DNA from: a bacterium
Lineage (GTDB): Bacteria; Cyanobacteriota; Sericytochromatia; S15B-MN24; UBA4093
Assembly (NCBI GenBank): GCA_017744355.1
Contig: JAGIBK010000003.1
Span: 54,547-118,546 of the forward strand
DNA: 64,000 nucleotides
Direction of reading: 5' to 3'
Position numbers and translations under genes: made by a program. Below the pieces are notes generated by a model. That model was not told the DNA's origin. It did no database searches and saw nothing but the letters and a program-made list of their open reading frames with translations. Shown here piece by piece: positions 1 through 32,903 of this stretch (position 1 is the stretch's first letter; each line of letters opens with the position of its first letter).

Positions 1-635
1 TGGCTCGAGCCGGGGCGCATGTACTCGTTGACCATGCTCTCGAGGAAGGCCCCATCGCCGGTGAAGTCTCGCCCCATGGCCTCCTTGGCGATCGCAAGCA
101 CGCTCTGCTCGGCCGAAGCGTGCAGGGCCGCCACGTCCCCTATGAATTGCGACTTGCTCACCTCGCCGTACATGGCCGGATCGTAGAAGCGATGGCGCGT
201 GTTCAGCTCATCTCCCGAGAGCTTCCCATCGTGGTTCATGTCCGCCTCGTCGAACAGGGCCGCGAACTTCTTCGCGCGCTCCGGATCGATGGAGGTTGCA
301 GCCTGAGGCGTCGCGGAGACGGCGCCGAAATCGGAGCCCGGCGCGGCCGCTTGAGGCTTGGCGTTGTCGAGGACCGCAAGCCCGCCCGTGACCTGGCTCT
401 GGTCCTGGGCCATCTCGGGCTTGCCGAAGTCCGCGAGGTTCTCCTTGGTCACCAGGTCCTGCCCGAGCTGCATGAGGCCCTGGGCCATCTCGCCCAGGCC
501 CTCGATGACCTCGCCGGCGGCGTCTATCTGTGCCTTGACGGGGTTCTTGCCCTGGAGCAAGTCCATGGCCATGTGGCCCCCCATCGCCATCGGATCGAAG
601 CGGGCCGCGCTCTTGAGAAAGCCGCCGATATCCAT
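1..635 (-). CDS. EF-hand calcium-binding protein, partial (3' end lies outside the window)
   Basis: Minus-strand frame absent from the ORF track because it runs off the window start. ATG at 635-633 preceded by GGAGGAGGA. GC-biased third positions. Canonical 12-residue EF-hand loop D-M-N-H-D-G-K-L-S-G-D-E in the translation (…FDEADMNHDGKLSGDEL…). The listed ORFs 120..650(+) and 208..717(-) are Arg-rich shadows of it. Confidence 0.7.
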   Translation of the reverse strand, partial: MDIGGFLKSAARFDPMAMGGHMAMDLLQGKNPVKAQIDAAGEVIEGLGEMAQGLMQLGQDLVTKENLADFGKPEMAQDQSQVTGGLAVLDNAKPQAAAPGSDFGAVSATPQAATSIDPERAKKFAALFDEADMNHDGKLSGDELNTRHRFYDPAMYGEVSKSQFIGDVAALHASAEQSVLAIAKEAMGRDFTGDGAFLESMVNEYMRPGSS

Positions 636-877
636 GCATCCTCCTCCTGACCGTCACAGGGCAACGCTTGTTGCCGATCAAATCGACGCACTGACGATAA
701 AATCGTCCTCTATCCAACAGCTATTAACCCCGAATGAAGTGAACTCTATCTTTCTTAATGAAACTAAAACAATACACAAAAAACTGAGATCGTTTCGTTA
801 TCAAAATACCTTTCACGGGAACATGGGATTCGATCGGCTTGCCACGTTTCACGCCTCTCGACCAGCGAGCAACATGC

Positions 878-3037
878 ATGCGTAAAAGCCTTCTCGCCCC
901 TCTTCTGATCGGCCTTCTCGTGAGCGCCGGCTGCACGACCGGGCAGCTCGTCGACACCACCGGGGGCAACGACTCCGGCCTCGCGGCGCGCAACACCGCC
1001 ACCGGCGAGTACACCGGGCAAGTCCTCGGACTGAACGGCAAGCCCGCCGTGAACGTCCAGGTGCAGGGCTATCTGGTCTCCAACAACAGCGCGAGCATCA
1101 TCTCGAACAACAGCGGGGGCCTCATCTCCCACAACGGCTCCAAGTATGCGATTCTCGCCGCCGAGACGCTCTCCACCACCACCGACGCCAAGGGTCGCTT
1201 CAAGCTCGTCAGCCGCAGCGGCTTGCCGATGAACGTCGAGGCCGTCCTCTCGGCGAACGTCAAGGCGATTCAGCTTGGCGTCACCGAAGAGACCAGCGCC
1301 AAGCTCCAGCTCGCCAAGACCGGGCAGATCAGCGGTCGAGTCACGACCCCCAAGGCCCCCTCGGTCACCAACTGGGAAGGGGTGGACGTCTTCATTCCCG
1401 GCACCTCGTACGTGGCCAAGACGGACGCGGCCGGTCGCTACACCCTCTCGAACGTGCCGGTCGGCACCTTCGACCTGGTGGGAACCAAGGCCGGCCTGGG
1501 CCGCGGCAACCAGCCGAGCGTCGGGGTCGCTTCCGAGCAGACGACGCAGGCGCCGGACCTGGCCCTCTCGGTCACCACCCCGGAGATCGCGAGCATCAGC
1601 CAGCCGAACGGTGGTCCCGGCAGCGTCGTCACCCTCACAGGCTCGAACTTCGGGGCCTCCACCGGCGAGAGCCTCGAAGTGACCTTCGGCGGCGCCCAGG
1701 TCGCCGCCCCCCAGCGCGTCGACGACCGGACCCTACGGGTCGAGGTGCCGCCCGCGGCCGACTCGGGGGCCGTCGTGGTCACGGTGAGTGGCATCAAGAG
1801 CAACGCCAAGAACTTCACCGTTCTATCCGAGCTCATCCTCTCGCCCCGCTTTCCGTACCTGCGCAAGGGCCGCCCCCAGCGCTACACCGTCACCGCCCTC
1901 GACCGCGACAAGCACGTCGTTTCCAACCCCTCGGTCACCTGGAGCGTGACGGGCAATACCTTCCAGCTGAACAACGGTCTGGTGACGCCCACGGGCGAGG
2001 GACAGGGAACCCTACGCGTCACCAGCGGCATGCTGCGCGCGCCCCTGGACCTCCAGGCCTTCGATGGCCCGGTCGTCAACACGCTCGCCGGCAGCTACAT
2101 GGGCTTTCGCGACGGGGTAGGCAGCGAGGCGCAGTTCTCCTACCCCAACGGGGTCGCGGTGGACGCGAGCGGCAGCGTCTACGTGGCCGATCGCAACAAC
2201 CACCGCATCCGCATGATCAGCGGCGACGGCCTGGTCAGCACCCTCGCGGGGACCGGCCTTCCCGGGCGCAAGAACACCATCGGGGCCGCTGCGGAATTCT
2301 ACTCCCCCGCCTGCGTCGCCCCGGACGGCAAGGGGAACCTCTTCCTGACCGAAGCGGGCAACCATGATGTCCGGTGCATCTCGCTCACGACCGGCATGGT
2401 CTCGACCGTGGCAGGAGACGGGGTCGCCGGCTACTACGACGCCTGGACCCCTCTAGAGACCGCCCGCTTCAACACCCCCCACGGCCTGGCCGTCGGGAGC
2501 GACGGGACCCTCTACGTCGCCGACTGGGGCAACCAGACCATTCGCTTCATCCTGCCCAACCGGGCCGTGCGCACCATGGCCAACATCATCGTCTACAACG
2601 GGACCCCCGTCCCGGGCTTCGTGGACGGTTCCTACGCGAACGCGCGCTTCAACTATCCCATCGGCGTGGCCGTGGATTCGAGCGGCAAGCTCTACGTCTC
2701 CGACCAGCACAACAACCGCATCCGGCGCATCGACACCGACCTCCAGGTGAGCACCTTCGCCGGCAACGGCGACCCCGCCCTGTTCAACGGCCCCCACGAT
2801 CTGGCGGTCGATGCCGCTGGCAACGTCCTGGTCGCCGATCACGACCACAACCAGATCAAGCAGATCGCCCCCGACGGGACGATCCGCGTGATCGCGGGCT
2901 CGGGGGAGTACGGGCTCGCCGACGGTCGCGGATCGCAGGCGAGCTTCAACGAGCCTTTCGGGGTCGCGGTGGACGCGAGCGGCAGCATCTACGTGGGCGA
3001 TCGCAACAACCACCGCATCCGCCTCATCTGGCCCTAG
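878..3037 (+). CDS. Cell-surface lipoprotein with IPT/TIG-like and Ig-like domains and C-terminal NHL beta-propeller repeats
   Basis: Track ORF 839..3037 begins at TTG; in-frame ATG at 878 gives MRKSLLAPLLIGLLVSAGC (signal peptide then Cys). At least four NHL-type repeats (NNHRIRMISGDG, NNRIRRIDTD, DHNQIKQIAPDG, NNHRIRLIWP). Confidence 0.85.
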   Translation: MRKSLLAPLLIGLLVSAGCTTGQLVDTTGGNDSGLAARNTATGEYTGQVLGLNGKPAVNVQVQGYLVSNNSASIISNNSGGLISHNGSKYAILAAETLSTTTDAKGRFKLVSRSGLPMNVEAVLSANVKAIQLGVTEETSAKLQLAKTGQISGRVTTPKAPSVTNWEGVDVFIPGTSYVAKTDAAGRYTLSNVPVGTFDLVGTKAGLGRGNQPSVGVASEQTTQAPDLALSVTTPEIASISQPNGGPGSVVTLTGSNFGASTGESLEVTFGGAQVAAPQRVDDRTLRVEVPPAADSGAVVVTVSGIKSNAKNFTVLSELILSPRFPYLRKGRPQRYTVTALDRDKHVVSNPSVTWSVTGNTFQLNNGLVTPTGEGQGTLRVTSGMLRAPLDLQAFDGPVVNTLAGSYMGFRDGVGSEAQFSYPNGVAVDASGSVYVADRNNHRIRMISGDGLVSTLAGTGLPGRKNTIGAAAEFYSPACVAPDGKGNLFLTEAGNHDVRCISLTTGMVSTVAGDGVAGYYDAWTPLETARFNTPHGLAVGSDGTLYVADWGNQTIRFILPNRAVRTMANIIVYNGTPVPGFVDGSYANARFNYPIGVAVDSSGKLYVSDQHNNRIRRIDTDLQVSTFAGNGDPALFNGPHDLAVDAAGNVLVADHDHNQIKQIAPDGTIRVIAGSGEYGLADGRGSQASFNEPFGVAVDASGSIYVGDRNNHRIRLIWP

Positions 3038-3041
3038 CCCT

Positions 3042-3083
3042 CAAACGAAACGACCGCCCGGTCTCGGGCGGTCGTTTCGTTTG
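3042..3083. terminator. Long perfect hairpin (18-bp stem, 6-nt loop) between convergent genes; putative bidirectional terminator without U-tract
   Basis: caaacgaaacgaccgccc (3042-3059) pairs exactly with gggcggtcgtttcgtttg (3066-3083). Sits between the NHL gene stop (3037) and the bcp stop (3099). Confidence 0.5.
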
Positions 3084-3098
3084 GGATGGGGGAATGCC

Positions 3099-3569
3099 TT
3101 ACGCCAGCGACTTGTAGATGCGCTCGGCGTGGCCGGTGGCCTTGACGTTGCGGTAGACGGCCTTGAGGACGCCGTCCGCGCCGATCACGAAAGTCGAGCG
3201 GATGACGCCGACGTAGACCTTGCCGTAGTTCTTCTTCTCGCCCCAGGCGCCGAATAGCTCCATCAACTTGTTCTCGGTGTCGCTCAACAGGGTGAAGGGC
3301 AGGCCGTACTTGGTCTGGAACTTGAGGTGCTTCGTGGGGGCATCAGGGCTGACGCCGACCACCACGACCTTCTCGCCGTGGGTGGCCAGGCCGTCGCGGA
3401 AGTCGCAGGCCTCGGTGGTGCAGCCGGGGGTGTCGTCCTTGGGATAGAAGTAGAGGACCAGGTCCTTGCCGGGCACCAGCAGATCGGCAAGGCGATACTC
3501 GCCCTCCTCACCTGCCGGATTGACGCCGCGCAGGGTGATGTCCGGGATGGGGGATCCGACTTCGAGCAT
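3099..3569 (-). CDS. bcp: Peroxiredoxin Bcp (thiol peroxidase, thioredoxin-dependent)
   Basis: LVLYFYPKDDTPGCTTEACDFRD peroxidatic-Cys motif. ATG at 3569 with AAAGGA RBS (track ORF extends to a TTG at 3587). Start is 21 nt downstream of the upstream gene's stop. Confidence 0.88.
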   Translation of the reverse strand: MLEVGSPIPDITLRGVNPAGEEGEYRLADLLVPGKDLVLYFYPKDDTPGCTTEACDFRDGLATHGEKVVVVGVSPDAPTKHLKFQTKYGLPFTLLSDTENKLMELFGAWGEKKNYGKVYVGVIRSTFVIGADGVLKAVYRNVKATGHAERIYKSLA

Positions 3570-3590
3570 GGGATAGGTTCCTTTCAAGAA

Positions 3591-4943
3591 TCAGGCGAGA
3601 ATGGCGCGCAGGGCCTCGCGGAACTCCTGCATCGTCGCGAAGCGCGAGGCGGGCAGGGGATGCATGGCCTTGGCGAGGGCGGTGCCAAGCGCCTCGGGCA
3701 GTTGCGGGTTCAGCTCGTGCGCGGGCGGGTTGGACGTGCGGGAGATGAAGCTCTCGGGCTTCTGGCCCGTCACCAGGTGGTAGAGGGTGGCGCCCAGGCC
3801 GTACACGTCGCTACGCGGATCGGCACCCGAGGCGTTGGTAAAGAGCTCCGGGGCCGAGTAGGCCGGGTCGCGGCCGTGGATCGCCTCGGTGAAGACGATC
3901 GAAGGGTCCCCCTCGATGTGCGCCCCCGAGAAGTTGGTAACCTTCACGATCTCGTCCGAAACGCGGATGCTCGCGGGCGTCACGTTGCGGTGCACGACGG
4001 GGGGCGTGGCGTGGTGGGCCGCGTTCAGACCGGCGGCGGCCTGCGCTGCGTAGCCCACGGCCTCGCGCCACGAGAGCGAGCCGATCCGATCGACCAGGTT
4101 GAAGCCCTCGACCCACTCGGCGATGACGTAGAGGTTGCCCTCGTCCTCGATCACGTCGAGGATGGTGACGAGGTTGGGGTGAGAGAGCTTGGCCGTCGCT
4201 CGGGCCTCGCGCACCGCCCGGTTCTTCCAGAGGGCGAGCTTGTCCGGCGGCAGGTTGACGTCGGAGATGAGCTTCTTGATGAAGACCTGGCGCTCGGTGA
4301 TGGCGTTGAAGGCCTTGAAGGAGACCGAGCGGGGCGAGCGCTTGAGGGTCTCGGCGATCCGGTAGTTCTCGAAGGGCAGGTACTCTTCCTCTTCGAGGTT
4401 GCTGCCGACCAGCACCTGGGCGATCGCCTGGACCTGGGCAGGGGTCGCCTCGTGGCGCATGCGCTCGGCGTCGGCCTGGATGACCGGCAACAGCCGCTCC
4501 AGCGTCACCAGCTCGATGTCGGTCGGGTTCTCCACGTGCATGGGGGTGTGGGGCGGCACGACGATGAGGGCCTTGGTCTTGAGCTTGCCCATCAGCCCCG
4601 AGTTCCAGCGCGAGAGGATGGTGTTGAGGGTCTTGGCCTTCATCTCGCAGCGCTGCAGGGGGTTCTCGATCTGGTGGGGCGGGTTGTTGTCCCGGTGCAC
4701 CCGCCAGGTCTTCTGGTTGACGTGGCCGTGGACCTCGCCCTGCCAGTACTTGGTCTCGATGGCGTAGACCGCGTGGGTCGAGACCAGGATGATGTCGATC
4801 TCGATGTTGCTCTGCTTGTGGTAGAAGCCGGGCAGGATAACGTTCGTCAACGCCACGAAGCCCTCGGGAAGATGGCCGAGCGTGCGCGCGACGGTCTTCT
4901 CGAATTCGTTCACGGGGTTTCCGGCCACGATGATCTGGGCCAT
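3591..4943 (-). CDS. NERD (nuclease-related) domain protein fused to a degenerate Ser/Thr-kinase-like (pseudokinase) domain
   Basis: N-terminal NERD/PD-(D/E)xK-like region (…NIEIDIILVSTHAVYAIETKYW…, D…E-x-K retained). C-terminal kinase fold with APE-like motif (YSAPE) but HRD replaced by HRN (VVHRNVTPAS), DFG replaced by NFS (KVTNFSGA) and no glycine-rich loop. RBS GGAAGGAG upstream of ATG 4943. Confidence 0.85.
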   Translation of the reverse strand: MAQIIVAGNPVNEFEKTVARTLGHLPEGFVALTNVILPGFYHKQSNIEIDIILVSTHAVYAIETKYWQGEVHGHVNQKTWRVHRDNNPPHQIENPLQRCEMKAKTLNTILSRWNSGLMGKLKTKALIVVPPHTPMHVENPTDIELVTLERLLPVIQADAERMRHEATPAQVQAIAQVLVGSNLEEEEYLPFENYRIAETLKRSPRSVSFKAFNAITERQVFIKKLISDVNLPPDKLALWKNRAVREARATAKLSHPNLVTILDVIEDEGNLYVIAEWVEGFNLVDRIGSLSWREAVGYAAQAAAGLNAAHHATPPVVHRNVTPASIRVSDEIVKVTNFSGAHIEGDPSIVFTEAIHGRDPAYSAPELFTNASGADPRSDVYGLGATLYHLVTGQKPESFISRTSNPPAHELNPQLPEALGTALAKAMHPLPASRFATMQEFREALRAILA

Positions 4944-5028
4944 GGGGCGAGGGCTCCTTCCACGTAAGGCATGAGTCTTGCTCTCTTCATCCTACCCGGA
5001 AGAGCGCTTGGCTACGCCTTTTCGTGGC

Positions 5029-6630
5029 TCACGCCAGCGATCGCGCCACCACCCGATGCCAGACCCCCTCCAGGGCGCGCTTGAAGCTGAGGGCGTCCGG
5101 ATAGCGATCGGCGGGGTTCTCTTCGAAGGCCCGGCGGATGATCGCGTCGAGCCCGGCGACCCAGCCCAGGTCCTCCGAGAGGGCCGGGGTGGCCGCGAGG
5201 GTGAGGGCGATCGCCCGGCTCTCGGCCGTCAGGGGCCTGAAGTGCTCGGTGGGGATCAGGCCGAAGGTCCGGGGCCCCAGCCAAGGCTCGGTGGGCATCT
5301 CCCCGGTGATGAGGCGATAGAGGGTGAGCCCCAGCGAGTACAGGTCGGAAGGGGCCTTGGCCTGGTTGGGGGCCGCGAACTGCTCGGGGGGCATGTAGGT
5401 GAAGGTGCCGATCGGCACGTTGGCGTCGAGCGTCAGGTTGGAGGTGCCGAGGGCCGCGTTCTTGGCGATGCCGAAGTCCAGGAGCTTGACGTGGCCCGTG
5501 TGCTGCGTGCGCATGATGTTGCTCGGTTTGATGTCCCGGTGCACGATCCCGCGGGCGTGAGCAAAGGCCAGCACGTCGCAAATGGCGATGCCGACCGAAA
5601 GCACCTGCTCCAGGGGCAGGGGCGCTGCCTCCTCGAGGTTCTCGCCCTCGATCCACTCGGTAACCAGCATGGAGGGCTCCATGTAGTCGTAGACCTTGAC
5701 CACCCCGTCGTGGTGGTTGGAGAGGGCGATGAGGCTCTGGACCTCCTTCTGGAAGCGGGAGATGATGCCGTCGAGGGTCCCGGCCCCGCTCGCCACCTGC
5801 TTGAGGGCGACCTGACGGCCCAGCCGCGTGTCCTCGGCGCAGTAGAGGATCGAGTGCAGGCTGCTGCCCACCACCCGCAGGATGCGGTAGGAGCCCACCA
5901 TCTCACCCGCCTCGCGCATGCGCACGCCCAGCGGGCCGTAGGTGACGGGTCCGGTCTGTTCGGCGCGCTCGCTCACCGGCGCCTGTGGGGGCGCCGGAGG
6001 CACGGGGCGCTTGCGGCGCGAGAAGCCAAACGCGAGCGCGCCGGCGCTGAGCGTCAAGAGCGAGCCCAGGGCCACGTACAAAGAGGTCGGCACCGCAGGG
6101 GCCACGGGGGGCGCGGGCGACGGCGTGGGCGAAGCGGTCGTCTCGGGCTTGAGGGCCCCCGACTGGATCTGGAAGATCAGGTCCTGGGCCGCGAGGCGCA
6201 CCGCCGGGTCGCGCTTGATGGCCTCGGTGCAGAGCGCGATCGCCGCCGCGGGCCGTCCGGCCAAGGCGAGCACCCGCGCGACCGGCAGGTAGTTCCAGCC
6301 GTTCTCGGGCCAGGCCTCGATGGCGTCGTTGCCGTGAGAAATGGCGGCGTCGTAACGCCCCAGCCGCCCGTACAGGCTCGCCAGGCGCAGGTGGGCCTCG
6401 CCGGCGCGCACCTTAGGGGCCGCCTTGAGGAGCGCCTCGAGCTGCGCGATCGCAGCCTCCGGCCTGCCCTGGGCGATCAGATCGTCTACCGCCTGCATGG
6501 CATACACCCAGGCGCGATCGCCCGTGACCTCCTGAGCCGCCCACGCAGGCGCCATCGCCCCGGCGGCCGTCAGGGCGACCGGGGCGATCGAGAGCGTCAT
6601 GGCGAGGATGAGGGCGGCCTTGCCTATCAA
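5029..6630 (-). CDS. Membrane Ser/Thr protein kinase with N-terminal signal peptide and extracytoplasmic TPR-like domain, one TM segment, C-terminal kinase domain
   Basis: VALK lysine, HRDIKPSN catalytic loop, DFG and PPE motifs. N-terminal signal peptide and TPR-like repeats; hydrophobic segment LYVALGSLLTLSAGALAFGF followed by RRKR before the kinase domain. Confidence 0.9.
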   Translation of the reverse strand: MIGKAALILAMTLSIAPVALTAAGAMAPAWAAQEVTGDRAWVYAMQAVDDLIAQGRPEAAIAQLEALLKAAPKVRAGEAHLRLASLYGRLGRYDAAISHGNDAIEAWPENGWNYLPVARVLALAGRPAAAIALCTEAIKRDPAVRLAAQDLIFQIQSGALKPETTASPTPSPAPPVAPAVPTSLYVALGSLLTLSAGALAFGFSRRKRPVPPAPPQAPVSERAEQTGPVTYGPLGVRMREAGEMVGSYRILRVVGSSLHSILYCAEDTRLGRQVALKQVASGAGTLDGIISRFQKEVQSLIALSNHHDGVVKVYDYMEPSMLVTEWIEGENLEEAAPLPLEQVLSVGIAICDVLAFAHARGIVHRDIKPSNIMRTQHTGHVKLLDFGIAKNAALGTSNLTLDANVPIGTFTYMPPEQFAAPNQAKAPSDLYSLGLTLYRLITGEMPTEPWLGPRTFGLIPTEHFRPLTAESRAIALTLAATPALSEDLGWVAGLDAIIRRAFEENPADRYPDALSFKRALEGVWHRVVARSLA

Positions 6631-6788
6631 TCCGGAGTCCTTCTTCGAACAGTGCCTGGGCCCCTTGCCTGAGTCATCATAACAAGCGCGCCGGCCTCTG
6701 CTCCATGTACCCCGGCAGCTGGCGAGCTATCCGGAAGACTGGACGAAAAGCGGCAATCTAAGCCAATCAGGGGCAGTTCAGGGCGCGA

Positions 6789-7541
6789 TCAGGAGCGACG
6801 CGCCAGGTAGGCGATCCGGTAGGTCGAAGCGCTCACGGCGTTCAGGGTCAGGCAGTCGTAGGCGTTCACGAGGTCGAAGCCCGCGCGCTCCAGCGCCTCG
6901 CGGACCTCGAAGAGCGAGTAGCCGCGGTGGTGGTGGGTCTCCCGGATGCGGCGGTACAGGCCGGTGTCGGCCTCCTCGACGAAGTAGTCCACCTTGAGGG
7001 CGCCGATCCGCTTGTGCGGGTCGTAGGAGGCGCGCCAGATGCGGGCGTAGGCGTCCTCGACCTTCACCTCGGTCTCGTTGCCCCAGGCGGTCGAGACCGC
7101 GTACTCGGTGATCGCGTCGAAGAGGAAGAGGCCGCCGGGAGCCAGGTGGGCGGCCACCCGCTCGAAGGCCTTTTCGAGATCCTCGGGAACCAAAAGGTAG
7201 TTGATGGAGTCATAGAAGCAGGTGGCGGCATCGAAGGTGCCACCCAGCGCAAGCTCCCTGATGTCCTGGCAACGCCAGCGCACCTCGGCGCCCCAGCGCG
7301 TGGCCTTGGCCCGCGCGAGCGCCAGCATCGCCTCGGACTGATCCACGGCGGTCACGGCAAGTCCCCGGTTGGCGAAGGCCACCGCGGCCGAGCCGGTCCC
7401 GCAGGCCAGCTCCAGCAGCGATTGAGGTTCATGACCGGACAGCTCCCAGAGCTCGCGGGCGTAGCTGACCATCCGCAAGCTGAAGCGGCTCTGGCCGGTG
7501 CGGTCGTAAACGGAGGCGTAAGCGTCGTAGAGGGCTGACAT
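6789..7541 (-). CDS. Class I SAM-dependent methyltransferase
   Basis: SAM-binding motif LELACGTGSAAVAFA; GC-biased third positions. Confidence 0.85.
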   Translation of the reverse strand: MSALYDAYASVYDRTGQSRFSLRMVSYARELWELSGHEPQSLLELACGTGSAAVAFANRGLAVTAVDQSEAMLALARAKATRWGAEVRWRCQDIRELALGGTFDAATCFYDSINYLLVPEDLEKAFERVAAHLAPGGLFLFDAITEYAVSTAWGNETEVKVEDAYARIWRASYDPHKRIGALKVDYFVEEADTGLYRRIRETHHHRGYSLFEVREALERAGFDLVNAYDCLTLNAVSASTYRIAYLARRS

Positions 7542-7901
7542 GGCAGGTCGCCTGATACAAAAAAGATCGGACGGGTACGATGAAAGACACGTCGCCCCGC
7601 CGGGAAAGCCGGTATTAAATGATTTTTAAAGATTAATAAAGAATACGCTAGAAATCGGTCGGATTTATCTATATACTGAAAAGCTGCCGAGCTCTTCGTG
7701 CGATCGACTGTGACACGCGTCACTTTTCCCGCGGAGCCCGGCGATCCGAGACCAGGGCATTATCCCCTGCGCAGGCGAATTTGGCAAACTGGCCATCCCC
7801 GCCTCGCCCGACCCGGAGCCCGATTCGGATCGCCCCGTCGCCCCGCGACACGCAGAGCGGCCACGCCAGTACGCCTGGCTTTAAATATGAGGAGGTGCTA
7901 G

Positions 7902-8933
7902 TTGCCTAAGCTCGCCGGTGAAATGCTCGTTGAGATCGCCGCTCCGGTCCCCTTCGAAGAAGAGCCCCTCACCCATTCGTCCGACCTCGCCTTCACCAAC
8001 GCCGAGGAAGAGACCGAAGATCTCGACGCCACCGAGACTCCCGAAGAAGAGAGCACTCACACCAAGAAGATCAACGTCGCCACCACGGGGGCTCACCACG
8101 AGCAATCCGACGACTCCATCCGGATGTACCTGCAAGAGATCGGCCGTCGCCGCCTGCTGACCCATCCCGAGGAGCTCGAGCTCGCCCGCCGCGTCGCAAA
8201 CGGCGACGAGAAGGCCAAGCGCATGCTGGTCGCCGCCAACCTCCGTCTGGTGGTTTCCATCGCCCGCAAGCACCTGGGTCGCGGCCTCTCCTTCCTCGAC
8301 CTGATCCAGGAAGGCAACATGGGCCTGATGCGTGCCGCCGAGAAGTACGACTATCGCAAGGGCTTCAAGTTCTCGACCTACGCCACCTGGTGGATCCGTC
8401 AGGCCATCACCCGCGCGATCGCCGACCAGGGCCGCACCATCCGCGTGCCGGTCCACATGGTCGAGACCATCTCGCGCGTCAAGAAGACCATCCGCCTGAT
8501 GAGCCAGAAGCTGGGCCGTGCTCCCAACGAGCACGAGGTCGCCACCGAGCTTGCGATCACCGTCGAGAAGCTCCGCGAGATCACCAAGGCCGACCGCGAG
8601 CCCATCAGCCTCGAAACCCCCATCGGCAAGGACGACGACAGCCGCCTGGGCGACATCATCAAGGACCAGTACACCGCAAGCCCCCCCGCGACCGTCATGA
8701 ACCGGATGCTCTCCGAGGACGTCCAGACCATGCTCGAGACGCACCTGACGGACCGCGAGCTGTACGTGGTGCGCCGCCGCTTCGGCCTCGACGGCGAGAC
8801 CCAGCGCACCCTCGAAGGCATCGGCCACGACATGGGCGTCACCCGCGAGCGGGTCCGCCAGATCGAAGCCAAGGCCCTCCAGAAGCTGCGCAGCTCGGCC
8901 TTCAAGGAGCAGCTGCGGGGCTACCTCAGCTAG
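7902..8933 (+). CDS. RNA polymerase sigma-70 family factor (RpoD-like; resembles cyanobacterial group-2 sigma factors)
   Basis: Regions 2-4 recognisable ([56 protein letters not shown]). TTG start at 7902 with AGGAGG 5 nt upstream. Acidic N-terminal segment. Confidence 0.92.
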
Positions 8934-8952
8934 AAACCTCAACCCCATCTCA

Positions 8953-8983
8953 CCCGGGACCTTTCGGTCCCGGGTTTTTTGTT
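8953..8983 (+). terminator. Rho-independent terminator of the sigma factor gene
   Basis: cccgggacc/ggtcccggg stem with tttc loop, followed by tttttt (8975-8980). Confidence 0.85.
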
Positions 8984-9065
8984 GCAAGGAAGTTCAATTA
9001 TTTTAACTTGTGAAATATCTAGTGAGCGAATATTTTAGTAACTGAAAGTTCAAAGGGAGAGCCCG

Positions 9066-9536
9066 ATGCCGTTTTCCGATCCGAGAGCCGAAGTCCTGAA
9101 TGACCTGTTCGACGGGTTCCGTGGGATGCGCGAGCTGTTCCACGGGCTCATCGCCCTGTACGGCCTGAACATCTCTCACTACGCGGCGCTCAAGCACCTG
9201 CACCGCCAGGGCCCCCGCTCCATGAGCCAGCTGACGAGTTTCCTGAACGTGACCCACGGCGCGAGCACCAGCGTGATCGATCGGCTCGCCGCCATCGGCC
9301 TCGCTGAGCGCCAGGCAGCCCCGCACGATCGCAGGGTCGTGCAGGTCCAAATCACCCTCCAGGGCCAGGAGGTCCTCAAGGCCATCGCCGACGAGTCCAT
9401 CCTGCGCCTGACGACGGTATTCGCCGATCTGTCGAACGACGACCGGCAGCAGCTGGCGCAAGGACTCAAGATCCTCGCCAATTCCATCCGTACCGCCCAC
9501 GCATCCCCGCTTGGAGAGAACCATGCCAACCGCTGA
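9066..9536 (+). CDS. MarR family transcriptional regulator
   Basis: Winged-helix MarR-like sequence (…LNISHYAALKHLHRQGPRSMSQLTSFLNVTHGASTSVIDRLAAIGLAERQ…). AAGGGAGAG RBS before the ATG. First gene of the efflux operon. Confidence 0.85.
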   Translation: MPFSDPRAEVLNDLFDGFRGMRELFHGLIALYGLNISHYAALKHLHRQGPRSMSQLTSFLNVTHGASTSVIDRLAAIGLAERQAAPHDRRVVQVQITLQGQEVLKAIADESILRLTTVFADLSNDDRQQLAQGLKILANSIRTAHASPLGENHANR

Positions 9537-10677
9537 ATCCAGCACCAACGGTCAAGCCCCCGCCCCCGTCGAAGACCTGAAGGTCACCCCGAAGCGCAAG
9601 CCTCCCGTCGTCCTGATGGGCGTGCTCGCCATCGGCCTGGTGATCGGCGGGGTGTACGGCGGCAAGTGGTGGACGCACCGCCAGGCCTTCGTCTCGACCG
9701 AGGACGCCCAGGTCGCAGGCAACCTGATCACCGTCAGCTCGCGCGTGCCGGGCCGCATCGGCCAGCTCCTGGTCGACGAGGGCCAGCAGGTCCAGGCGGG
9801 CCAGGTGGTCGCCGTCCTGGACGAGACCGACTTCAAGGCCCAGCTCGCTCAGGCCGAGGCGGGGCTCGCCGTCGCCAAGACCGGCCTCAAGACCTCCGAG
9901 ACCGGGGTCTCGCTCCAGAGCGCCCAGACCACCTCGCAAATCGCCCAGGCCGAGGCCGGGGTGCGCGCCGCCCGCGCGGCCCTCACCAGTGCCGAAGCCA
10001 GCGCCGAGAAGGCGCACGCCGACCTCTCGCGCGTCGAGCGTCTCTTCGAGGCGGGCGGCATCTCCAAGCAGGCGTACGAAGCCGCCAAGACTGGCGCGAC
10101 CGCGGCCGACTCGGCCCTGACTGCCGCCAAGAGCCAGCTCAGCTCGGCCCAGGAGGGGCTGCGCCTCGCCAACGCCGGCACCCAGGCGGTGAGCATCAAG
10201 CGCGGCGGGGTCGAGACGGTCCAGGCCCAGATCGCCCAGGCCGAGGCCGCGGTCAACCTCGCCAAGCTCCAGCTCGCCCACGCGACCATCACCGCCCCGG
10301 TCTCGGGCGTCATCGCCCGCCGCATGAGCAACCTCGGCGAGCAGGTCGCCCCCGGCCAGGGCCTCTACTCGCTGACCGAGACCGACAAGGTCTGGATCTC
10401 GAGCTACATCGAGGAGACCTACATCCGCCGCGTCCACCAGGGTGCTCCGGTCGACATCCGCATCGACGCCTACCCCGGCAAGACCTTCCACGGCAAGGTC
10501 CAGCAGGTCGGCTCGGTCACCGGCGGCCAGTTCTCGCTCTTGCCCGCCAACAACGCCGCCGGCAACTTCACCAAGGTCGTCCAGCGCATCCCGGTCAAGA
10601 TCGCCGTCGAGGACCAGGGCCACGAGCTGAAGCCCGGCATGTCCGCCGTCATCGACATCGACGCCCGCACGCTGTAA
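9523..10677 (+). CDS. HlyD/EmrA-family membrane fusion protein (efflux periplasmic adaptor)
   Basis: N-terminal TM anchor and long coiled-coil Ala/Gln-rich region typical of EmrA/HlyD adaptors. ATG 9523 preceded by GGAGAG; overlaps the marR stop. Confidence 0.88.
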   Translation: MPTAESSTNGQAPAPVEDLKVTPKRKPPVVLMGVLAIGLVIGGVYGGKWWTHRQAFVSTEDAQVAGNLITVSSRVPGRIGQLLVDEGQQVQAGQVVAVLDETDFKAQLAQAEAGLAVAKTGLKTSETGVSLQSAQTTSQIAQAEAGVRAARAALTSAEASAEKAHADLSRVERLFEAGGISKQAYEAAKTGATAADSALTAAKSQLSSAQEGLRLANAGTQAVSIKRGGVETVQAQIAQAEAAVNLAKLQLAHATITAPVSGVIARRMSNLGEQVAPGQGLYSLTETDKVWISSYIEETYIRRVHQGAPVDIRIDAYPGKTFHGKVQQVGSVTGGQFSLLPANNAAGNFTKVVQRIPVKIAVEDQGHELKPGMSAVIDIDARTL

Positions 10678-10689
10678 CCAGGAGGCCCC

Positions 10690-12285
10690 ATGGCCATCGC
10701 AAGCCCGCGCAAGGGGTTCCAGAACCCGTTCGCCAAGCTGATCACGGATCAGAACTACATGTGGTGGGCGGCCCTGCCGGTCATCATGGGCATGTTCATC
10801 GTCATCATCGACTCGAGCATCGTCAACGTGGCGCTGCCGCACATCATGGCGGCTTTCGGCTCCAACGTCGACGACATCGAGTGGATCTCGACCGGGTACA
10901 TGCTCGCCGCCGCGGCCATGATGCCGACCACCGGCTTCTTGGCCGATCGCTTCGGCCGCAAGAAGCTCTACGCCATCGCCATCTTCCTGTTCACCCTCAC
11001 CTCCATGCTGTGCGGAGCGGCATGGAGCGCCGAGAGCCTCATCTTCTTCCGCATCCTCCAGGGGATCGCGGGCGGCGCCATCCAGCCCGTCGGGCAAGCC
11101 ATCGTCTTCGAGGCGTTCCCGCCCGAAAAGCGCGGCATGTCCATGGCCATCGTGGGCATCGGTGCCATGCTCGCCCCGACCCTGGGCCCCACCCTGGGCG
11201 GGTACCTGGTCGAGTACATCAACTGGCGGTGGATCTTCTACGTCAACCTGGTCCCGGGGCTCATCGCCACCTTCATGGCCGCTGCGGTCCTGCGCGAGAC
11301 GGCCCTCAAGAACGTCAAGATGGACGTCTGGGGCTTCGTCTCCATGGCGATCTTCCTCTCGACCTTCCTGGTGGGCGTCAGCGACGGCCACGCCAAGGGC
11401 TGGGACAGCCCCTACATCTTGGGCCTGTTCGCGGTGGCCGCCGTCAGCTTCGGCCTCTTCCTCGTGATCGAGCTGTGGCGCAAGGAGCCCCTCATCGACC
11501 TACGCCTGTTCAAGAACTTCACCTACAGCGCGGGCACCGTCGCCTCCATCGTCATGGGCATCGGCCTGTTCGGGGGCATGTTCCTGCTGCCGGTCTTCCT
11601 GCAGACCGTCATGGGCTTCGACGCGGTCAAGACCGGCCTCATCATGCTGCCCTCGGGCCTATCGGTCGCCTTCATGATGCCGGTCGCGGGGCTGCTCTCC
11701 AACCGGCTGGACCCGCGGGTGCCGCTGATCGGGGGCCTCAGCCTGATGGGCCTCTCGCTCATCCTCCAGTCCCACATGACCCCCGAGACGCCGCTCTTGA
11801 CCATCTACGGCTGGACCATCCTGCGCGGTATCGGCATGGGGCTCGCCTTCCCCAGCATGAACCAAACGGCCCTGGGGGCGGTCCCCATCCAGAAGATCGG
11901 CCAGGCATCGGGCCTCTTCAACGTCACCCGTCAGATCGGCGGCAGCTTCGGCATCGCGATCCTCGCCACCATCCTGAGCCAGCGCACGGCCTTCCATACA
12001 GCCATTCTGGGCCAGGACGCGGCCCGCACCGGCGTGGCGGGCCACGCCATCGGCGCGCTCAAGGGGCTGATGCTGAGCCACGGCGCAAGCCCTCACGTCG
12101 CTCAGCAACAAGCCGGCGCCGTGATCGGCATGCTCGCGGGCAAGCAGGCCGCCGTCCTCGCCTTCCAGGACACCTTCTGGATCTCGGGGATCATCATGTT
12201 CGCGGGTGCTATCCCCGCCCTCTTCCTGGTCAAGAAGAAACAACAAGGCCAAGCGGGCGCTGCCCACATGGCCGTGATCGAGTAA
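10690..12285 (+). CDS. MFS transporter, DHA2 (EmrB/QacA) drug-efflux family, 14-TMS type
   Basis: MFS signature GFLADRFGRKK and many hydrophobic spans; position between the adaptor and the TolC-like gene. Confidence 0.9.
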   Translation: MAIASPRKGFQNPFAKLITDQNYMWWAALPVIMGMFIVIIDSSIVNVALPHIMAAFGSNVDDIEWISTGYMLAAAAMMPTTGFLADRFGRKKLYAIAIFLFTLTSMLCGAAWSAESLIFFRILQGIAGGAIQPVGQAIVFEAFPPEKRGMSMAIVGIGAMLAPTLGPTLGGYLVEYINWRWIFYVNLVPGLIATFMAAAVLRETALKNVKMDVWGFVSMAIFLSTFLVGVSDGHAKGWDSPYILGLFAVAAVSFGLFLVIELWRKEPLIDLRLFKNFTYSAGTVASIVMGIGLFGGMFLLPVFLQTVMGFDAVKTGLIMLPSGLSVAFMMPVAGLLSNRLDPRVPLIGGLSLMGLSLILQSHMTPETPLLTIYGWTILRGIGMGLAFPSMNQTALGAVPIQKIGQASGLFNVTRQIGGSFGIAILATILSQRTAFHTAILGQDAARTGVAGHAIGALKGLMLSHGASPHVAQQQAGAVIGMLAGKQAAVLAFQDTFWISGIIMFAGAIPALFLVKKKQQGQAGAAHMAVIE

Positions 12286-12325
12286 CCCCTACGACTATCC
12301 CTGACGGCACCGGAGGCCGCTTGCC

Positions 12326-13636
12326 ATGAACCATCCCCTCACCCGGGGCCTTTCGCCCCTCCTCGCCGCCGCGACGCTTGCCGTCGCCACCCTCCCGGCT
12401 CAGGCGGCCGAGCAACCCCTCGACCTGCGCGCGGCGGTATCGGCCGCGCTCGACACCAGCCCCGCCGTCACCGCCGCCGAGGCCAAGATCGGCGCCGCCG
12501 AGGCCCGGCAGGGCGAGGCGAACGCCCGGGTGCTGCCAACCGTGACCCTCAGCGCCATGCCGGTTCACATCGGGATCCTCGACAACAACCTCTCGCGCAT
12601 GCTCAAGGCGATGGCCCCGGGCCTCAGTCTCGATTTCATGCTCAGCGAGACGCTGACCGTCACCCAGCCCCTCTTCACCGGCGGCCGCATCGGGCTCGGC
12701 CGCGAGGCCGCCGAGGCAGGCAAGGCCATGGCCCAAGAGGGCGCGCGCCTCTCGCGCCAGAACGTCGCCTTCGAGACCGCCACCTACTACCTCAACGTGC
12801 TGCGCGCCGAGAGCCTGCTCGAAGCGGTCCTCGAGAACGATCGCCAGGCACAGGCCCACCTCAAGGACGCCCAGGCCCGCGAGAAGAACGGGCTCGGCAC
12901 CCGCTTCGACACCCTCCAGGCCCAGACGGCCCTCGCCAACGTCAAGGGCCGGGTCATCCAGGCCCGCAACGCGGTCAAGCTCGCTCGGCTGAGCCTCTCG
13001 ACGGCGATCCACCAGCCGCTCAACGACCGCCCCCTGGCAGCCCCCAGCCTCCCGATGTTCAAGATCAGCGAGAGCAGCATCGCAAGCGGCATCGAGGCCC
13101 GGCCCGAGGTGAAGGTCGCCCAGGGCCAGCAGAAGATCAATGCCCTCAGCACCGAGATCAGCCGACGCTCCCTGCTGCCCACCGTGGGGGTCCAGGGCAT
13201 CCTCTTGGCCGACAAGCTCAACGTGCCGGGCTACGCCGTCATGGGCTCGGCCAGCTGGGAGCTCTTTGATGGCGGCAAGGTCCACGCCCAGATCCGCGCG
13301 GGCGAGAAGACCGAGGAGGCCGATGTGGCGAACCTCCAAGCCATGCGCGAAGGGCTCCGGCTCGAGGTCGAGAAGGCGATCGCCGATCGCAGCGAGGCCA
13401 AAGAGCGGATTACAGCCGCCGAGCAGGGTCTGAAGGCCGCTCAGGCCGGCTACGACCTGGCTCAGCTACGCTACAGCGAAGGGGCCGGCACCGGCACCGA
13501 GGCCATCGACGCGGCCAGCACCATGTCCCAGGCCCGCGCGACCTACATCCAGGCCACCTACGACGCCTTGGCCGCCGAGCTCAAGATCGCCAAGGCCCTC
13601 GGGCTGGACCTGGCGGGAATGCTGCGCAAGGCATAA
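12326..13636 (+). CDS. TolC-family outer-membrane efflux protein
   Basis: Signal peptide and coiled-coil-rich TolC-like sequence; last gene of the marR-adaptor-MFS-OMP operon. Confidence 0.85.
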   Translation: MNHPLTRGLSPLLAAATLAVATLPAQAAEQPLDLRAAVSAALDTSPAVTAAEAKIGAAEARQGEANARVLPTVTLSAMPVHIGILDNNLSRMLKAMAPGLSLDFMLSETLTVTQPLFTGGRIGLGREAAEAGKAMAQEGARLSRQNVAFETATYYLNVLRAESLLEAVLENDRQAQAHLKDAQAREKNGLGTRFDTLQAQTALANVKGRVIQARNAVKLARLSLSTAIHQPLNDRPLAAPSLPMFKISESSIASGIEARPEVKVAQGQQKINALSTEISRRSLLPTVGVQGILLADKLNVPGYAVMGSASWELFDGGKVHAQIRAGEKTEEADVANLQAMREGLRLEVEKAIADRSEAKERITAAEQGLKAAQAGYDLAQLRYSEGAGTGTEAIDAASTMSQARATYIQATYDALAAELKIAKALGLDLAGMLRKA

Positions 13637-29449: not shown

Positions 29450-31114
29450 TCAGATGTGATAGCCGCGGAAGCGCTCGGTCTTGGCCTGCGGGCGCAGCAC
29501 GGCCGCGTCCTGGACCCGGGCGGCCTCCTGGGCCACGCCGAAGTAGTCGAGCCACTCTTGCGGGGCGTCGATGGTCTCGCCGCCGTGGCTCGTCAGGCGC
29601 GATCGCACCTGGCACAGCACCGGAGTATTGATCGCAACCCCCGCCACCACCACTTGCCCCTTGGTCAGGGCCGGCAGCTCGTCCAGCAGGTCGCGCCCCG
29701 CGCCCTCGACCGAGCTTGCGATGGTCTGCTGGTCGATGGGGTTCACGATCTTCATGATGAACTGGGTCATGCACTGGGAGAGCACGTCGCTGTCCAGCTT
29801 GCCCGGTCGCTGGGTGATGAGGCCGACCCCCACGCCGAACTTGCGGCCCTCGGCGAGGATCGTCTTGAGGATCGGGGTGCTGACGACTGTGGCCCCGGCC
29901 GGTGCGAAGCGGTGGGCCTCTTCGAGCAGCACGAAGACCGGGTAAGGCACGTAGGTCTCGCCGTCGTGGACCTTGCCGTTCTTGGTGTCCATCCGCGCGC
30001 GGTTGATGCGCCTGAGCAGGGTCGAGACGATCACCTGCTGCATGTCCTGGTCGATCTCGTTGAGCTGGATGACCGTGACCTGGCCGGGGGCGAACAGCTC
30101 GGGCAAAGGCAGGTGGTCCCGGTCGTGGAAGATCCGCGATCGCGCGAAGCGGTCCTCGAGGCGCCAGCGGATGCCCTCGATGGTGCTCGCGTTGGAGGAC
30201 GGATCGTCCTCGGCCCCCTCGGTGCGCATGGCATCCAGCGCGTTGAAGAGGTCCTGGAGGCCCCACAGGTGGCCGTCACCCTTGCGGCCCCGGACCCGGT
30301 CGAAGGCCTTGCCGAGGAAGGCGTTCATCTTCTCGCTCATCATGGGCAGCAGCGATCGCACGTCAGTCTCGGTGAGGCTCGAGAAGCGGATCCGCACCTG
30401 ATCGTGCGGGATGATCCGCACCCGAGGCCGGTAGCCGCCCTGCGAGAAGGCCGGATGGTTCTCGAACTCGCGGAAGGTGTGGTACTCGCCGTGGGGGTCG
30501 ATGACGAGCACCGCCGCGCGGTTGTAGGGGCGCAGCAGCTCCTCGATGAGCACACCCGCCGTGTAGCTCTTGCCGGAGCCGGTGGAGGCCAGAATGGCCA
30601 GGTGGGTCGAGACCAGGTTCTTGACGTCCAGCACCACGGGCACCTCGCCGGCCGCTCGGGTCAAGAGCGAGCCGAGGTGGGCCGAGCCTGGCGCCCCTTC
30701 GGTCTTGGGGCTCAAGACCTCGGTCAAGAAGGCGCTACTGGCCAGGTGGACCCGCGCACCCGGATCGGGCATCATCCGCGGATTGACGAAGCCCTTGAAG
30801 CGCGGATCGAAGTAGCCCGCGATCGAGACCGTCACCTCGTAGAGCTCAGGGGTGGCCGCGTCGAAGCCGATCAGCTCGGCCACCTCGGAAGGCGGGATGT
30901 GGGGATCCGCGAGGAAGGCGTCGGGCAGGGTGCGAACGATGGCCTTCTCGGTGATCTTGCCGAGGATCAGGCGCTCGGTGCCGTCCACCGACACCGGGTA
31001 GTAGACGAACTCGCCCACCTTGGTGCGGGCGTTGTCCGGGGTGATGAAGCGGTACTCGTGGGCGCTCTCGCCCGGGCCCTTGACGGTGCCGATCAACAGG
31101 TCTTGGCTCATCAC
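29450..31114 (-). CDS. herA: HerA-like ATPase/helicase (FtsK-HerA superfamily, DUF87-type)
   Basis: Walker A ILASTGSGKSYT, Walker B VFVLLEEAHRF, LITQRP motif, N-terminal barrel-like region. GTG/ATG start overlaps the upstream gene's TGA (GTGATGA). Confidence 0.88.
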   Translation of the reverse strand: MMSQDLLIGTVKGPGESAHEYRFITPDNARTKVGEFVYYPVSVDGTERLILGKITEKAIVRTLPDAFLADPHIPPSEVAELIGFDAATPELYEVTVSIAGYFDPRFKGFVNPRMMPDPGARVHLASSAFLTEVLSPKTEGAPGSAHLGSLLTRAAGEVPVVLDVKNLVSTHLAILASTGSGKSYTAGVLIEELLRPYNRAAVLVIDPHGEYHTFREFENHPAFSQGGYRPRVRIIPHDQVRIRFSSLTETDVRSLLPMMSEKMNAFLGKAFDRVRGRKGDGHLWGLQDLFNALDAMRTEGAEDDPSSNASTIEGIRWRLEDRFARSRIFHDRDHLPLPELFAPGQVTVIQLNEIDQDMQQVIVSTLLRRINRARMDTKNGKVHDGETYVPYPVFVLLEEAHRFAPAGATVVSTPILKTILAEGRKFGVGVGLITQRPGKLDSDVLSQCMTQFIMKIVNPIDQQTIASSVEGAGRDLLDELPALTKGQVVVAGVAINTPVLCQVRSRLTSHGGETIDAPQEWLDYFGVAQEAARVQDAAVLRPQAKTERFRGYHI

Positions 31115-31686
31115 TTCACCGCCTGGATGGTTCGCTGCCAGTTGAGCGCGTTGCGCAGCACCCCGAGCCGTGCGCGATCCTCAGGGCAGAGGGAGTTGAG
31201 GCGATCGAGGACCGCAAGGAGCAAGCTAAGGCTCGCAGGGCCTCCGTTCGCCTGCACCAGGGGCAGGTAGCGCAGCTGGAGGCGCCCCGTCTCGTCCCGG
31301 TGAAAGCGAACAAAGTCCTCGTCCGGCAGGGTCTCGACCTCGGAGTGGACCGGGATCACCTCGCCCGGCACCTCGTGGACCCCGTGCAGAGCGCCCAGGC
31401 GCCCGAGCAACAGGACGCTCACGAGCGTTGCCTGCTCGTCGATGAGGTCCGGCGTGAAGACCCGGATCTCTTGGGGCGAGTTGCTCAGGCGGGGACCGAA
31501 GTGGCCGAAGTCGGGGTTCTGGAGCTGGGAGTCGAAGACGATGCCGATCGCATCCCCCGCCAGGCGCACGAAGCGGCCGAAGGCGTAAGCGCCAGGCTCG
31601 GGAGGCTCGGGGATCTCACCCGGATGGTAGATCTGGCAGACGTAGTCCAGGTGCGATCGCGACGAGACGATCTTTCCGATGCGCAA
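31111..31686 (-). CDS. Hypothetical protein encoded between nurA and herA
   Basis: TTG start at 31686 with GGAGGGAAGG RBS; stop overlaps herA start; GC-biased third positions; no recognisable motif. Confidence 0.6.
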   Translation of the reverse strand: MRIGKIVSSRSHLDYVCQIYHPGEIPEPPEPGAYAFGRFVRLAGDAIGIVFDSQLQNPDFGHFGPRLSNSPQEIRVFTPDLIDEQATLVSVLLLGRLGALHGVHEVPGEVIPVHSEVETLPDEDFVRFHRDETGRLQLRYLPLVQANGGPASLSLLLAVLDRLNSLCPEDRARLGVLRNALNWQRTIQAVK

Positions 31687-31743
31687 GGCCTTCCCTCCAG
31701 TCGAAGCAACCTTTCGATTCTAGAACAAACGATTGATGTCCGG

Positions 31744-32901: not shown

Positions 32902-32903
32902 GC

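Follow-up and report, generated by a model that had tools for sequence, protein, structure and literature searches.

The window analysed here, a stretch of 64,000 nucleotides from a bacterium of the Sericytochromatia, a class of non-photosynthetic relatives of cyanobacteria, carries on its minus strand adjacent genes for a receptor-type Hanks Ser/Thr kinase, which we call TPRkin, and for a fusion of a NERD nuclease domain with a pseudokinase, NERDpk. Our analysis of their sequences indicates that the two together read as a new split, receptor-coupled variant of the triad of NERD nuclease, pseudokinase and active kinase already described in PglW, MAD6 and DndF. More broadly, we propose a Sericytochromatia-specific, vertically inherited cassette that would run from a methyltransferase through the membrane receptor kinase to the cytosolic NERD-pseudokinase, which in turn would gate the nuclease. 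For this proposal as a whole we see the chances as evenly balanced; we are more confident of the architecture and of the partnership between the two proteins, and less so of the direction of control and of the nuclease as the output.

How could such a pair work? The periplasmic TPR domain would sense an envelope or periplasmic cue, and the cytoplasmic kinase domain would be activated as a result, probably through phosphorylation of a threonine in its activation loop, which is how PknB-type kinases are activated. The kinase would then dock on the pseudokinase of NERDpk, phosphorylate it, or both, with Ser/Thr348, a conserved residue of the GDP[S/T]I motif in the disordered activation loop, as a candidate site, and the change in the pseudokinase would switch the attached PD-(D/E)xK nuclease on or off. 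What the sequences show are the identities of the domains, the state of their motifs, the folds, a topology by hydropathy, the conserved gene order and the collinearity with MAD6 and PglW; a physical or phosphorylation link between the proteins, the activity of the nuclease, the signal and the biological role are inferred. As to what the pair would serve, a role in core stress responses or DNA processing seems to us likelier than mobile phage defence.

The receptor kinase and the NERD-pseudokinase

The list of open reading frames (ORFs) of the window contains three consecutive minus-strand ORFs, at 5029-6630 (533 amino acids, aa), 3591-4943 (450 aa) and 3099-3587 (162 aa), which correspond to TPRkin, NERDpk and a Bcp peroxiredoxin. 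Their GC content at third codon positions (GC3) is 0.90-0.94, as expected for coding sequence at 67% GC. Between the stop codon of the kinase gene and the ATG of NERDpk lie 85 nucleotides (nt), with a GGAGG-type ribosome-binding site (RBS), GAAGGAG, ahead of NERDpk; between NERDpk and the ATG of Bcp at 3569 lie 21 nt, with AAAGGA ahead of Bcp. ORFs, GC3 and upstream stretches thus confirm the layout given in a preliminary description of the window, of three consecutive genes with these two gaps and an RBS each, and the domains assigned there (Pkinase, TPR, NERD and AhpC-TSA) are all borne out by Pfam. The features of the conserved genes, all on the minus strand, are as follows.

6789-7541, minus: class I S-adenosylmethionine (SAM)-dependent methyltransferase, 250 aa, at the head of the conserved block (Methyltransf_25, 77 bits)
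5029-6630, minus: TPRkin, receptor-type Hanks Ser/Thr kinase, 533 aa (Pfam, orthologue alignment, motif check)
6535-6630, minus: predicted N-terminal signal peptide or signal anchor of TPRkin, aa 1-32, AWA/AQ (hydropathy peak 2.06, aa 1-27)
6181-6498, minus: predicted extracytoplasmic TPR-like domain of TPRkin, aa 45-150 (TPR_16, 45.1 bits over aa 47-110; TPR_14, 37.4 bits; both above cut-offs)
6019-6090, minus: predicted transmembrane helix of TPRkin, aa ~181-204, followed by RRKR (hydropathy)
5056-5898, minus: predicted cytoplasmic kinase domain of TPRkin, aa 245-525 (K277, E296, D366, N371 and D385 present; loop VGSSLHS; Pkinase, 109.8 bits over aa 249-448)
3591-4943, minus: NERDpk, NERD nuclease-pseudokinase fusion, 450 aa, no transmembrane segment (Pfam, NCBIfam, AlphaFold2 model, hydropathy)
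4404-4943, minus: NERD / PD-(D/E)xK nuclease domain of NERDpk, aa 1-180 (invariant E15, E48, D50, E63 and K65; NERD, 61 bits over aa 12-110, gathering score 22.1)
3594-4376, minus: pseudokinase domain of NERDpk, aa 190-450 (HRN, NFS, no glycine-rich loop; conserved GDP[S/T]I activation-loop motif and APE; Pkinase, 79.2 bits over aa 208-398)

The N-terminal hydrophobic segment of TPRkin is common to its orthologues too, as judged from hydropathy only, and a second hydrophobic segment, spanning aa 176-204, is the only further candidate for a membrane span. Since the N-terminal segment is followed by this single candidate and then by RRKR, hydropathy puts the TPR region on the outer and the kinase on the inner side of the membrane, and so bears out the receptor topology of the preliminary description. 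In the orthologues the TPR domain carries the conserved motif WPENGWxYLPVA...DPAVRLAAQDLI. The motifs VALK, HRD and DFG, already remarked on there, are present at aa 274-277 (VALK), 364-371 (HRDIKPSN) and 385-387 (DFG), and orthologues always retain VA[LIM]K, HRD[IV]KP[SA]N, DFG and GT[FY]x[YF]MxPE.

NERDpk has no hydrophobic segment by hydropathy. Structure comparison gives its NERD part a restriction-endonuclease-like fold; the catalytic residues D50, E63 and K65 do not vary among 22 sequences or at any of the loci, and E15 and E48 are likewise kept, over a range of 47-95% identity. The kinase-like part superposes on PknB (Foldseek E 3.5e-18, template-modelling score 0.82 on the target). It was earlier taken for a pseudokinase, and rightly so, because HRN (aa 318-320) stands in place of HRD, NFS (aa 337-339) stands in place of DFG, and the stretch LKRSPRSVSF contains no glycine-rich loop; in the protein of the window the catalytic-loop Asn is lost as well (HRNVTPAS). 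Among the orthologues we always find HR[N/S/G] and [N/G]F and never a glycine-rich loop, the Asp of HRD and that of DFG being lost throughout, and the deepest branch also has its beta3 Lys replaced by Arg; retained are the ExD...ExK of the NERD domain, GDP[S/T]I and APE. The motif states of the two proteins are thus complementary in all orthologues, with intact kinase motifs in TPRkin and degenerate ones in NERDpk, where the catalytic residues of NERD are kept. The full-length AlphaFold2 (AF2) model of NERDpk has a mean predicted local distance difference test (pLDDT) of 85.5, and the sole low-confidence stretch of its kinase-like domain is the activation loop, aa 347-356, with pLDDT below 50. 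No solved chain in the PDB combines NERD with a kinase, by sequence or by fold; NERD-pseudokinase fusions as such are recorded in PMC9040797.

Conservation of the pair and competing explanations

Genome and metagenome scans gave about 20 orthologous loci, all of them in Sericytochromatia-like metagenome-assembled genomes (MAGs) and metagenome contigs. NERDpk falls into 28 close clusters at 47-95% identity, beyond which scores drop abruptly to generic kinases, and the named clusters among the 28 are Sericytochromatia or unclassified 'Cyanobacteria bacterium' MAGs. Wherever a locus has sufficient flank, the order is the same: a divergent sigma-70 gene, then the class I SAM methyltransferase, the receptor kinase and NERDpk, the last three on one strand. 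In 11 genome loci the kinase gene lies directly 5' of NERDpk on the same strand, at gaps of 1-104 nt (68 nt, by its own gene calls, in the 95%-identical relative L031, GCA_036704125.1). Seven metagenome loci also have the order kinase then NERDpk, one of them, L038, with a spacer of 686 nt, and in L044 the C-terminus of the kinase is found just 5' of NERDpk. This order is still found where the kinase is only 36% identical and NERDpk 47%, and in the deepest branch the methyltransferase, kinase and NERDpk genes are separated by 19 and 33 nt. The neighbourhood of the kinase and NERD-pseudokinase pair, which the preliminary description had wanted checked across genomes, is thus kept in every informative locus. 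The unit proposed there has to be redrawn, since it overlooked the conserved methyltransferase upstream and included Bcp, which lies downstream in no locus other than that of the window and of its 95%-identical relative. NERDpk is better conserved than the kinase beside it (identities of 85 vs 64% and 58 vs 48%) and so is under strong constraint.

Two side observations concern these loci. The L038 spacer (L038:5315-6000) holds ORFs of 136 and 144 aa, neither of which matches a Pfam family. The MAGs nearest to the window, L031/L048 (GCA_036704125.1) and L002 (DATNQJ01), are labelled 'Pantanalinema sp.' and 'Stenomitos sp.', which are names of filamentous photosynthetic cyanobacteria; these labels look wrong, because the genes match Sericytochromatia MAGs throughout.

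Could TPRkin and NERDpk be functionally unrelated neighbours, held together by slow rearrangement within one class, with NERDpk working alone or with another kinase? The divergent sigma-70 gene and, further out, NAD synthase are syntenic too, the lineage has several other tandem-kinase paralogues, and the L038 spacer comes between the two genes. However, the two share a strand, some lineages having no more than 1-36 nt between them, and their adjacency has been kept despite repeated turnover of the downstream flank, which varies by locus (lipoprotein, ABC-F, PrmC and others). Taking into account also the complementary motif states and the active kinase attached in every inspected relative (see below), we regard mere neighbourhood as quite improbable.

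The relatives of NERDpk bear directly on the partnership. Its best named match is MAD6 (NCBIfam NF047741), with 236.3 bits for aa 1-449 against model positions 1-461 and a cut-off of 460 that is not reached; PglW (NF033442) gives 87.9 bits, under a cut-off of 990, and over model positions 48-485 only. The match list of a family-profile HMMER search is dominated by multi-kinase proteins, so that for any two-domain NERD-pseudokinases of ~450 aa in other phyla it is informative only down to ~207 bits, while a word-indexed protein search with NERD only (aa 1-190) returned one fragment and missed its own full-length family, and is hence uninformative on distribution. A bona fide MAD6 found by family profile, P0242 (762 bits), consists of NERD, a first kinase-like domain K1 (HRN, VNF) and a second one, K2, and every NERD-pseudokinase relative that could be inspected has an active kinase in cis. 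We read our pair as a split triad, acting in trans, because the sole adjacent active kinase in the window is a separate upstream gene. The preliminary description did not recognise the combination as a described system; NERD, pseudokinase and active kinase together are in fact published for PglW and some DndF proteins (PMC12839542, PMC4365076) and seen in MAD6, while the split form is new.

Several points weigh against reading the pair as a split relay. The canonical GxGxxG loop is not found in TPRkin, which has VGSSLHSxLY at window positions 5857-5877 (region of aa 252-258) while retaining K, E, HRD, N and DFG; since the glycines are missing in every orthologue, the activity of the kinase is not assured. 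The kinase domain of TPRkin scores 115 bits against K2 of the cis triads and up to 146 bits against unrelated Hanks kinases. A literal origin by gene fission, in which this domain would derive from the K2 of a triad, is unsupported, because it is no closer to K2 than to unrelated kinases. Conservation of the block, which includes the divergent sigma gene, may partly be vertical inheritance in one class. The AF2 model has a predicted template-modelling score (pTM) of 0.57, which makes its inter-domain geometry uncertain, and in the literature consulted no kinase-linked NERD is biochemically shown to be a nuclease, a point made in PMC9040797 as well.

Control might also run in the opposite sense, with NERDpk as an allosteric regulator or scaffold of the receptor kinase, NERD as a DNA- or RNA-binding sensor, and other substrates as the output. 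Pseudokinases are commonly allosteric activators of the kinases they pair with (established knowledge; PMC8141879), the NERD-like domain of SmdA has a role in cell division and does not look like a nuclease (PMC9040797), and NERDpk is the more conserved partner. The full PD-(D/E)xK set (D50, E63, K65, E15, E48), on the other hand, is invariant across 47-95% identity, which argues for retained catalysis and against mere binding, and we consider this reversal unlikely.

Of about the same low probability, in our estimate, is a minimal anti-phage defence resembling MADS or BREX, in which the methyltransferase would mark self, the kinase would sense infection at the envelope and NERD would restrict or abort. 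In its favour are the named matches of NERDpk to MAD6 and PglW, a partial mad2 match of the methyltransferase in PADLOC (70.9 bits, model positions 256-406 of 492), and the proposal that the NERD of PglW is a back-up or abortive nuclease (PMC12839542). But the scores of NERDpk are far under the cut-offs (236 vs 460 and 88 vs 990), and PD-T4-6 matches that PADLOC reports on both proteins we discount as generic kinase-domain similarity. The methyltransferase, moreover, has no DNA-methyltransferase motif IV and no PCQ motif in its sequence, and its closest solved relatives are uncharacterised SAM methyltransferases and small-molecule or peptide N-methyltransferases, so that we reject it as a DNA methyltransferase. 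Pfam and PADLOC scans brought up no further genes of MADS, BREX or Dnd beside the cluster, and whereas mobile defence islands are patchy, every related MAG examined has the locus, in synteny.

What, then, is the locus? Given the sub-cut-off scores, the want of adjacent defence genes, a methyltransferase not of the DNA type, the absence of any tRNA from the 64-kb window, the housekeeping genes nearest the cluster (NAD synthase, M17 peptidase, cytochrome c and the efflux operon described below) and the synteny, a core, vertically inherited cassette fits the context better than a mobile defence island, and the defence or toxin role hinted at in the preliminary description is disfavoured. A domesticated defence origin is possible. 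The triad would in that case be of defence type but chromosomally fixed, and would work as a transmembrane pathway, from a TPR cue through a relay in trans to a DNA or RNA nuclease, with a uvrB-wired sister system (next section); we advance this version tentatively, as a doubtful though not far-fetched extension.

The uvrB-linked paralogue, the peroxiredoxin and surrounding genes

Family-profile HMMER also brought up a Sericytochromatia family of ~940 aa with NERD, a degenerate K1, an active K2, a transmembrane segment and an ectodomain in one chain. Its genes, all outside the window, follow uvrB directly and on its own strand in 5 of 5 loci, with an 8-nt overlap in L037 and L048:

L034:383-3208, cis-triad gene
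L035:1938-4781, cis-triad gene
L036:1805-4639, cis-triad gene
L037:1134-3974, cis-triad gene
L048:3886-6702, cis-triad gene

Among the longer fragments of these loci UvrB is only 66-70% identical. The paralogue is absent from the 64-kb window, and GCA_036704125.1, the assembly closest to the window, carries both the split pair and the unsplit cis triad. The cis-triad proteins are collinear with NERDpk residues 1-450 (27% identity, E 1e-35). They differ from the split pair in being a single chain, in their membrane orientation, which is opposite to that of TPRkin (kinase N-terminal, sensor C-terminal), in their K1, which has lost the beta3 lysine and retains HRD in some members, and in their conserved neighbour, uvrB instead of the methyltransferase. 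We found no description of the family in the literature searched. It shows that the design of a NERD-pseudokinase with a membrane-anchored active kinase recurs in Sericytochromatia, in non-defence contexts, and its linkage hints at a NERD-kinase tied to DNA damage or repair. The K2 domains of the uvrB-linked paralogues P0134, P0135, P0147, P0150 and P0165 are, like TPRkin, glycine-poor in the loop (RTRNSLxY), with K, E, HRD, N and DFG retained; K2 of MAD6, by contrast, has a normal glycine-rich loop. In one of the loci, two convergent genes for TlpA/AhpC-TSA-type redoxins (L034:3215-4421) follow immediately after the cis-triad gene, which recalls Bcp beside NERDpk but is probably chance, because the other four loci (L035-L037 and L048) do not have them.

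The remaining elements of the cluster in the window are these.

7759-7787, minus: sigma-70-like promoter match TTGCCA-17-GATAAT, 5' of the methyltransferase gene (consensus match only)
3099-3569, minus: Bcp/PrxQ-type peroxiredoxin, 156 aa from its ATG, CxxxxC present (AhpC-TSA, 111 bits)
3043-3082, both strands: perfect 18-bp hairpin, likely a bidirectional intrinsic terminator (minimum free energy -40.3 kcal/mol, z -7.2)

The four genes from the methyltransferase to Bcp lie on one strand with short gaps, and the spacers within the block show no exceptional structure (z -1.75, +0.39 and +0.49). The hairpin at their 3' end sits between the convergent Bcp and NHL-repeat genes with T-rich tracts on either side, and a terminator call is made there on the plus strand too. 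Judged from these sequence features, methyltransferase, kinase, NERDpk and Bcp can form a single transcript in this genome. The single operon of the earlier description is thus compatible with the data as a transcript; as a conserved unit it is not, since Bcp lies outside. Bcp has the peroxidatic Cys in its PxxxTxxC context (PGCTTEAC), scores below the cut-offs of the two NCBIfam PrxQ/Bcp equivalogs (124 vs 140 and 146 vs 260), and is started at the same ATG (156 aa) by the L031 gene call. In all other related loci it is absent from the 3' side of NERDpk. Because, the window apart, it is found there in the 95%-identical relative alone, we take it for a recent, non-conserved neighbour, whose co-transcription here would be due solely to recent juxtaposition. 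A redox-linked module of three genes, with the peroxiredoxin as a functional part, would agree with the 21-nt gap, with the lack of a terminator ahead of Bcp and with the redoxins beside the L034 cis triad, but those are on the opposite strand and confined to that locus, and the missing conservation of Bcp largely refutes the idea, which we think very improbable indeed.

Other parts of the window may be noted. Convergent with the cluster, at 839-3037 (plus strand), is a gene for a 732-aa protein that looks like a secreted lipoprotein and contains CarboxypepD_reg, IPT/TIG and five or more NHL repeats; L001 has a similar NHL gene at the equivalent position, and there are weaker NHL matches close to the cluster in L007, L041 and L009. 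On the other side, at 9066-13636 (plus strand), a MarR-HlyD-MFS-OEP efflux operon lies between the sigma-70 and NAD synthase genes, as it does in L031; it appears to be an insertion into otherwise syntenic housekeeping DNA, because the deep-branching L032 lacks it at that position. Four consecutive minus-strand genes at 29450-34172 encode a patatin-like phospholipase (32904-34172), NurA (31744-32901), a 191-aa protein with no Pfam match (31111-31686) and, overlapping the last, a HerA ATPase (29450-31114; PADLOC HerA, 165 bits, with weak mad8 and DndH matches), ~25 kb from the cluster; patatin, NurA and HerA could be a defence or DNA-end-processing system. A histidine kinase and a chemoreceptor are among the further genes of the window that were scanned. 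Window positions 1-12000 contain no Rfam family.

Comparison with known systems

PglW resembles NERDpk most plainly in its N-terminal half, where a restriction-endonuclease-like NERD domain is followed by an inactive pseudokinase that works with an active Hanks kinase (PMC12839542; PMC4365076). In PglW, however, the active kinase is in the same chain and is followed by winged helix-turn-helix modules and an inactive STAND, for a total of about 1400-1600 aa, whereas NERDpk ends after the pseudokinase at 450 aa and the active kinase is encoded separately, as a membrane protein whose TPR domain is predicted to be periplasmic. Nor are the BREX type 2 neighbours PglX, PglZ, BrxC, BrxD and BrxHI near the cluster, whose neighbours are NHL-repeat, Bcp, methyltransferase, sigma-70 and MarR/efflux genes; ten large window genes, a part of the window ORFs, gave no BREX match when scanned with PADLOC.

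The likeness to MAD6 is closer, since the MAD6 model is collinear over the whole of NERDpk and the first kinase-like domain of P0242 shares the HRN and NF degeneracy. Here too the second, active kinase domain is in cis, whereas NERDpk stops at aa 450, and the mad1-8 gene set of MADS was not found round the window locus, the mad2 match being partial and the mad8-like HerA gene remote. Some DndF proteins, finally, carry the triad of NERD, pseudokinase and kinase as well (PMC12839542; PMC4365076), and we liken their tripartite grammar to that of our pair from the published description (PMC12839542). Dnd genes are not adjacent to the cluster either, the remote HerA gene with its weak DndH match being the only candidate.

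In the literature consulted, we found nothing that establishes how the NERD nuclease of PglW, MAD6 or DndF is influenced by the pseudokinase and kinase that accompany it. All three parts are there joined in one large chain, which in PglW is toxic (PMC4365076). In the pair described here the halves are naturally split, so that they could be expressed and mutated separately and mixed, giving a direct test of a relay from kinase through pseudokinase to nuclease; it is a tractable two-protein system, from an uncultured lineage and known so far from computation alone. Nor is the module confined to defence islands: a whole bacterial class has it as a core gene pair and, in its fused form, beside uvrB. 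The roles of kinase-linked NERD nucleases may thus extend to envelope-stress or DNA-repair signalling.

In its orientation, with the sensor N-terminal and outside and the kinase C-terminal and inside, TPRkin is unlike the bacterial Hanks kinases of the PknB/PrkC type. The pair recalls, by analogy only, RNase L and Ire1, in which the state of a nuclease is set by an attached kinase or pseudokinase; in Ire1 the kinase-linked nuclease is coupled to a lumenal sensor through one transmembrane helix. These proteins differ from ours in having a KEN fold instead of PD-(D/E)xK and a C-terminal instead of an N-terminal nuclease, and homology is limited to the kinase fold. If our proposal of a domesticated relay in trans is true, the pair would be a bacterial counterpart of the Ire1/RNase L logic.

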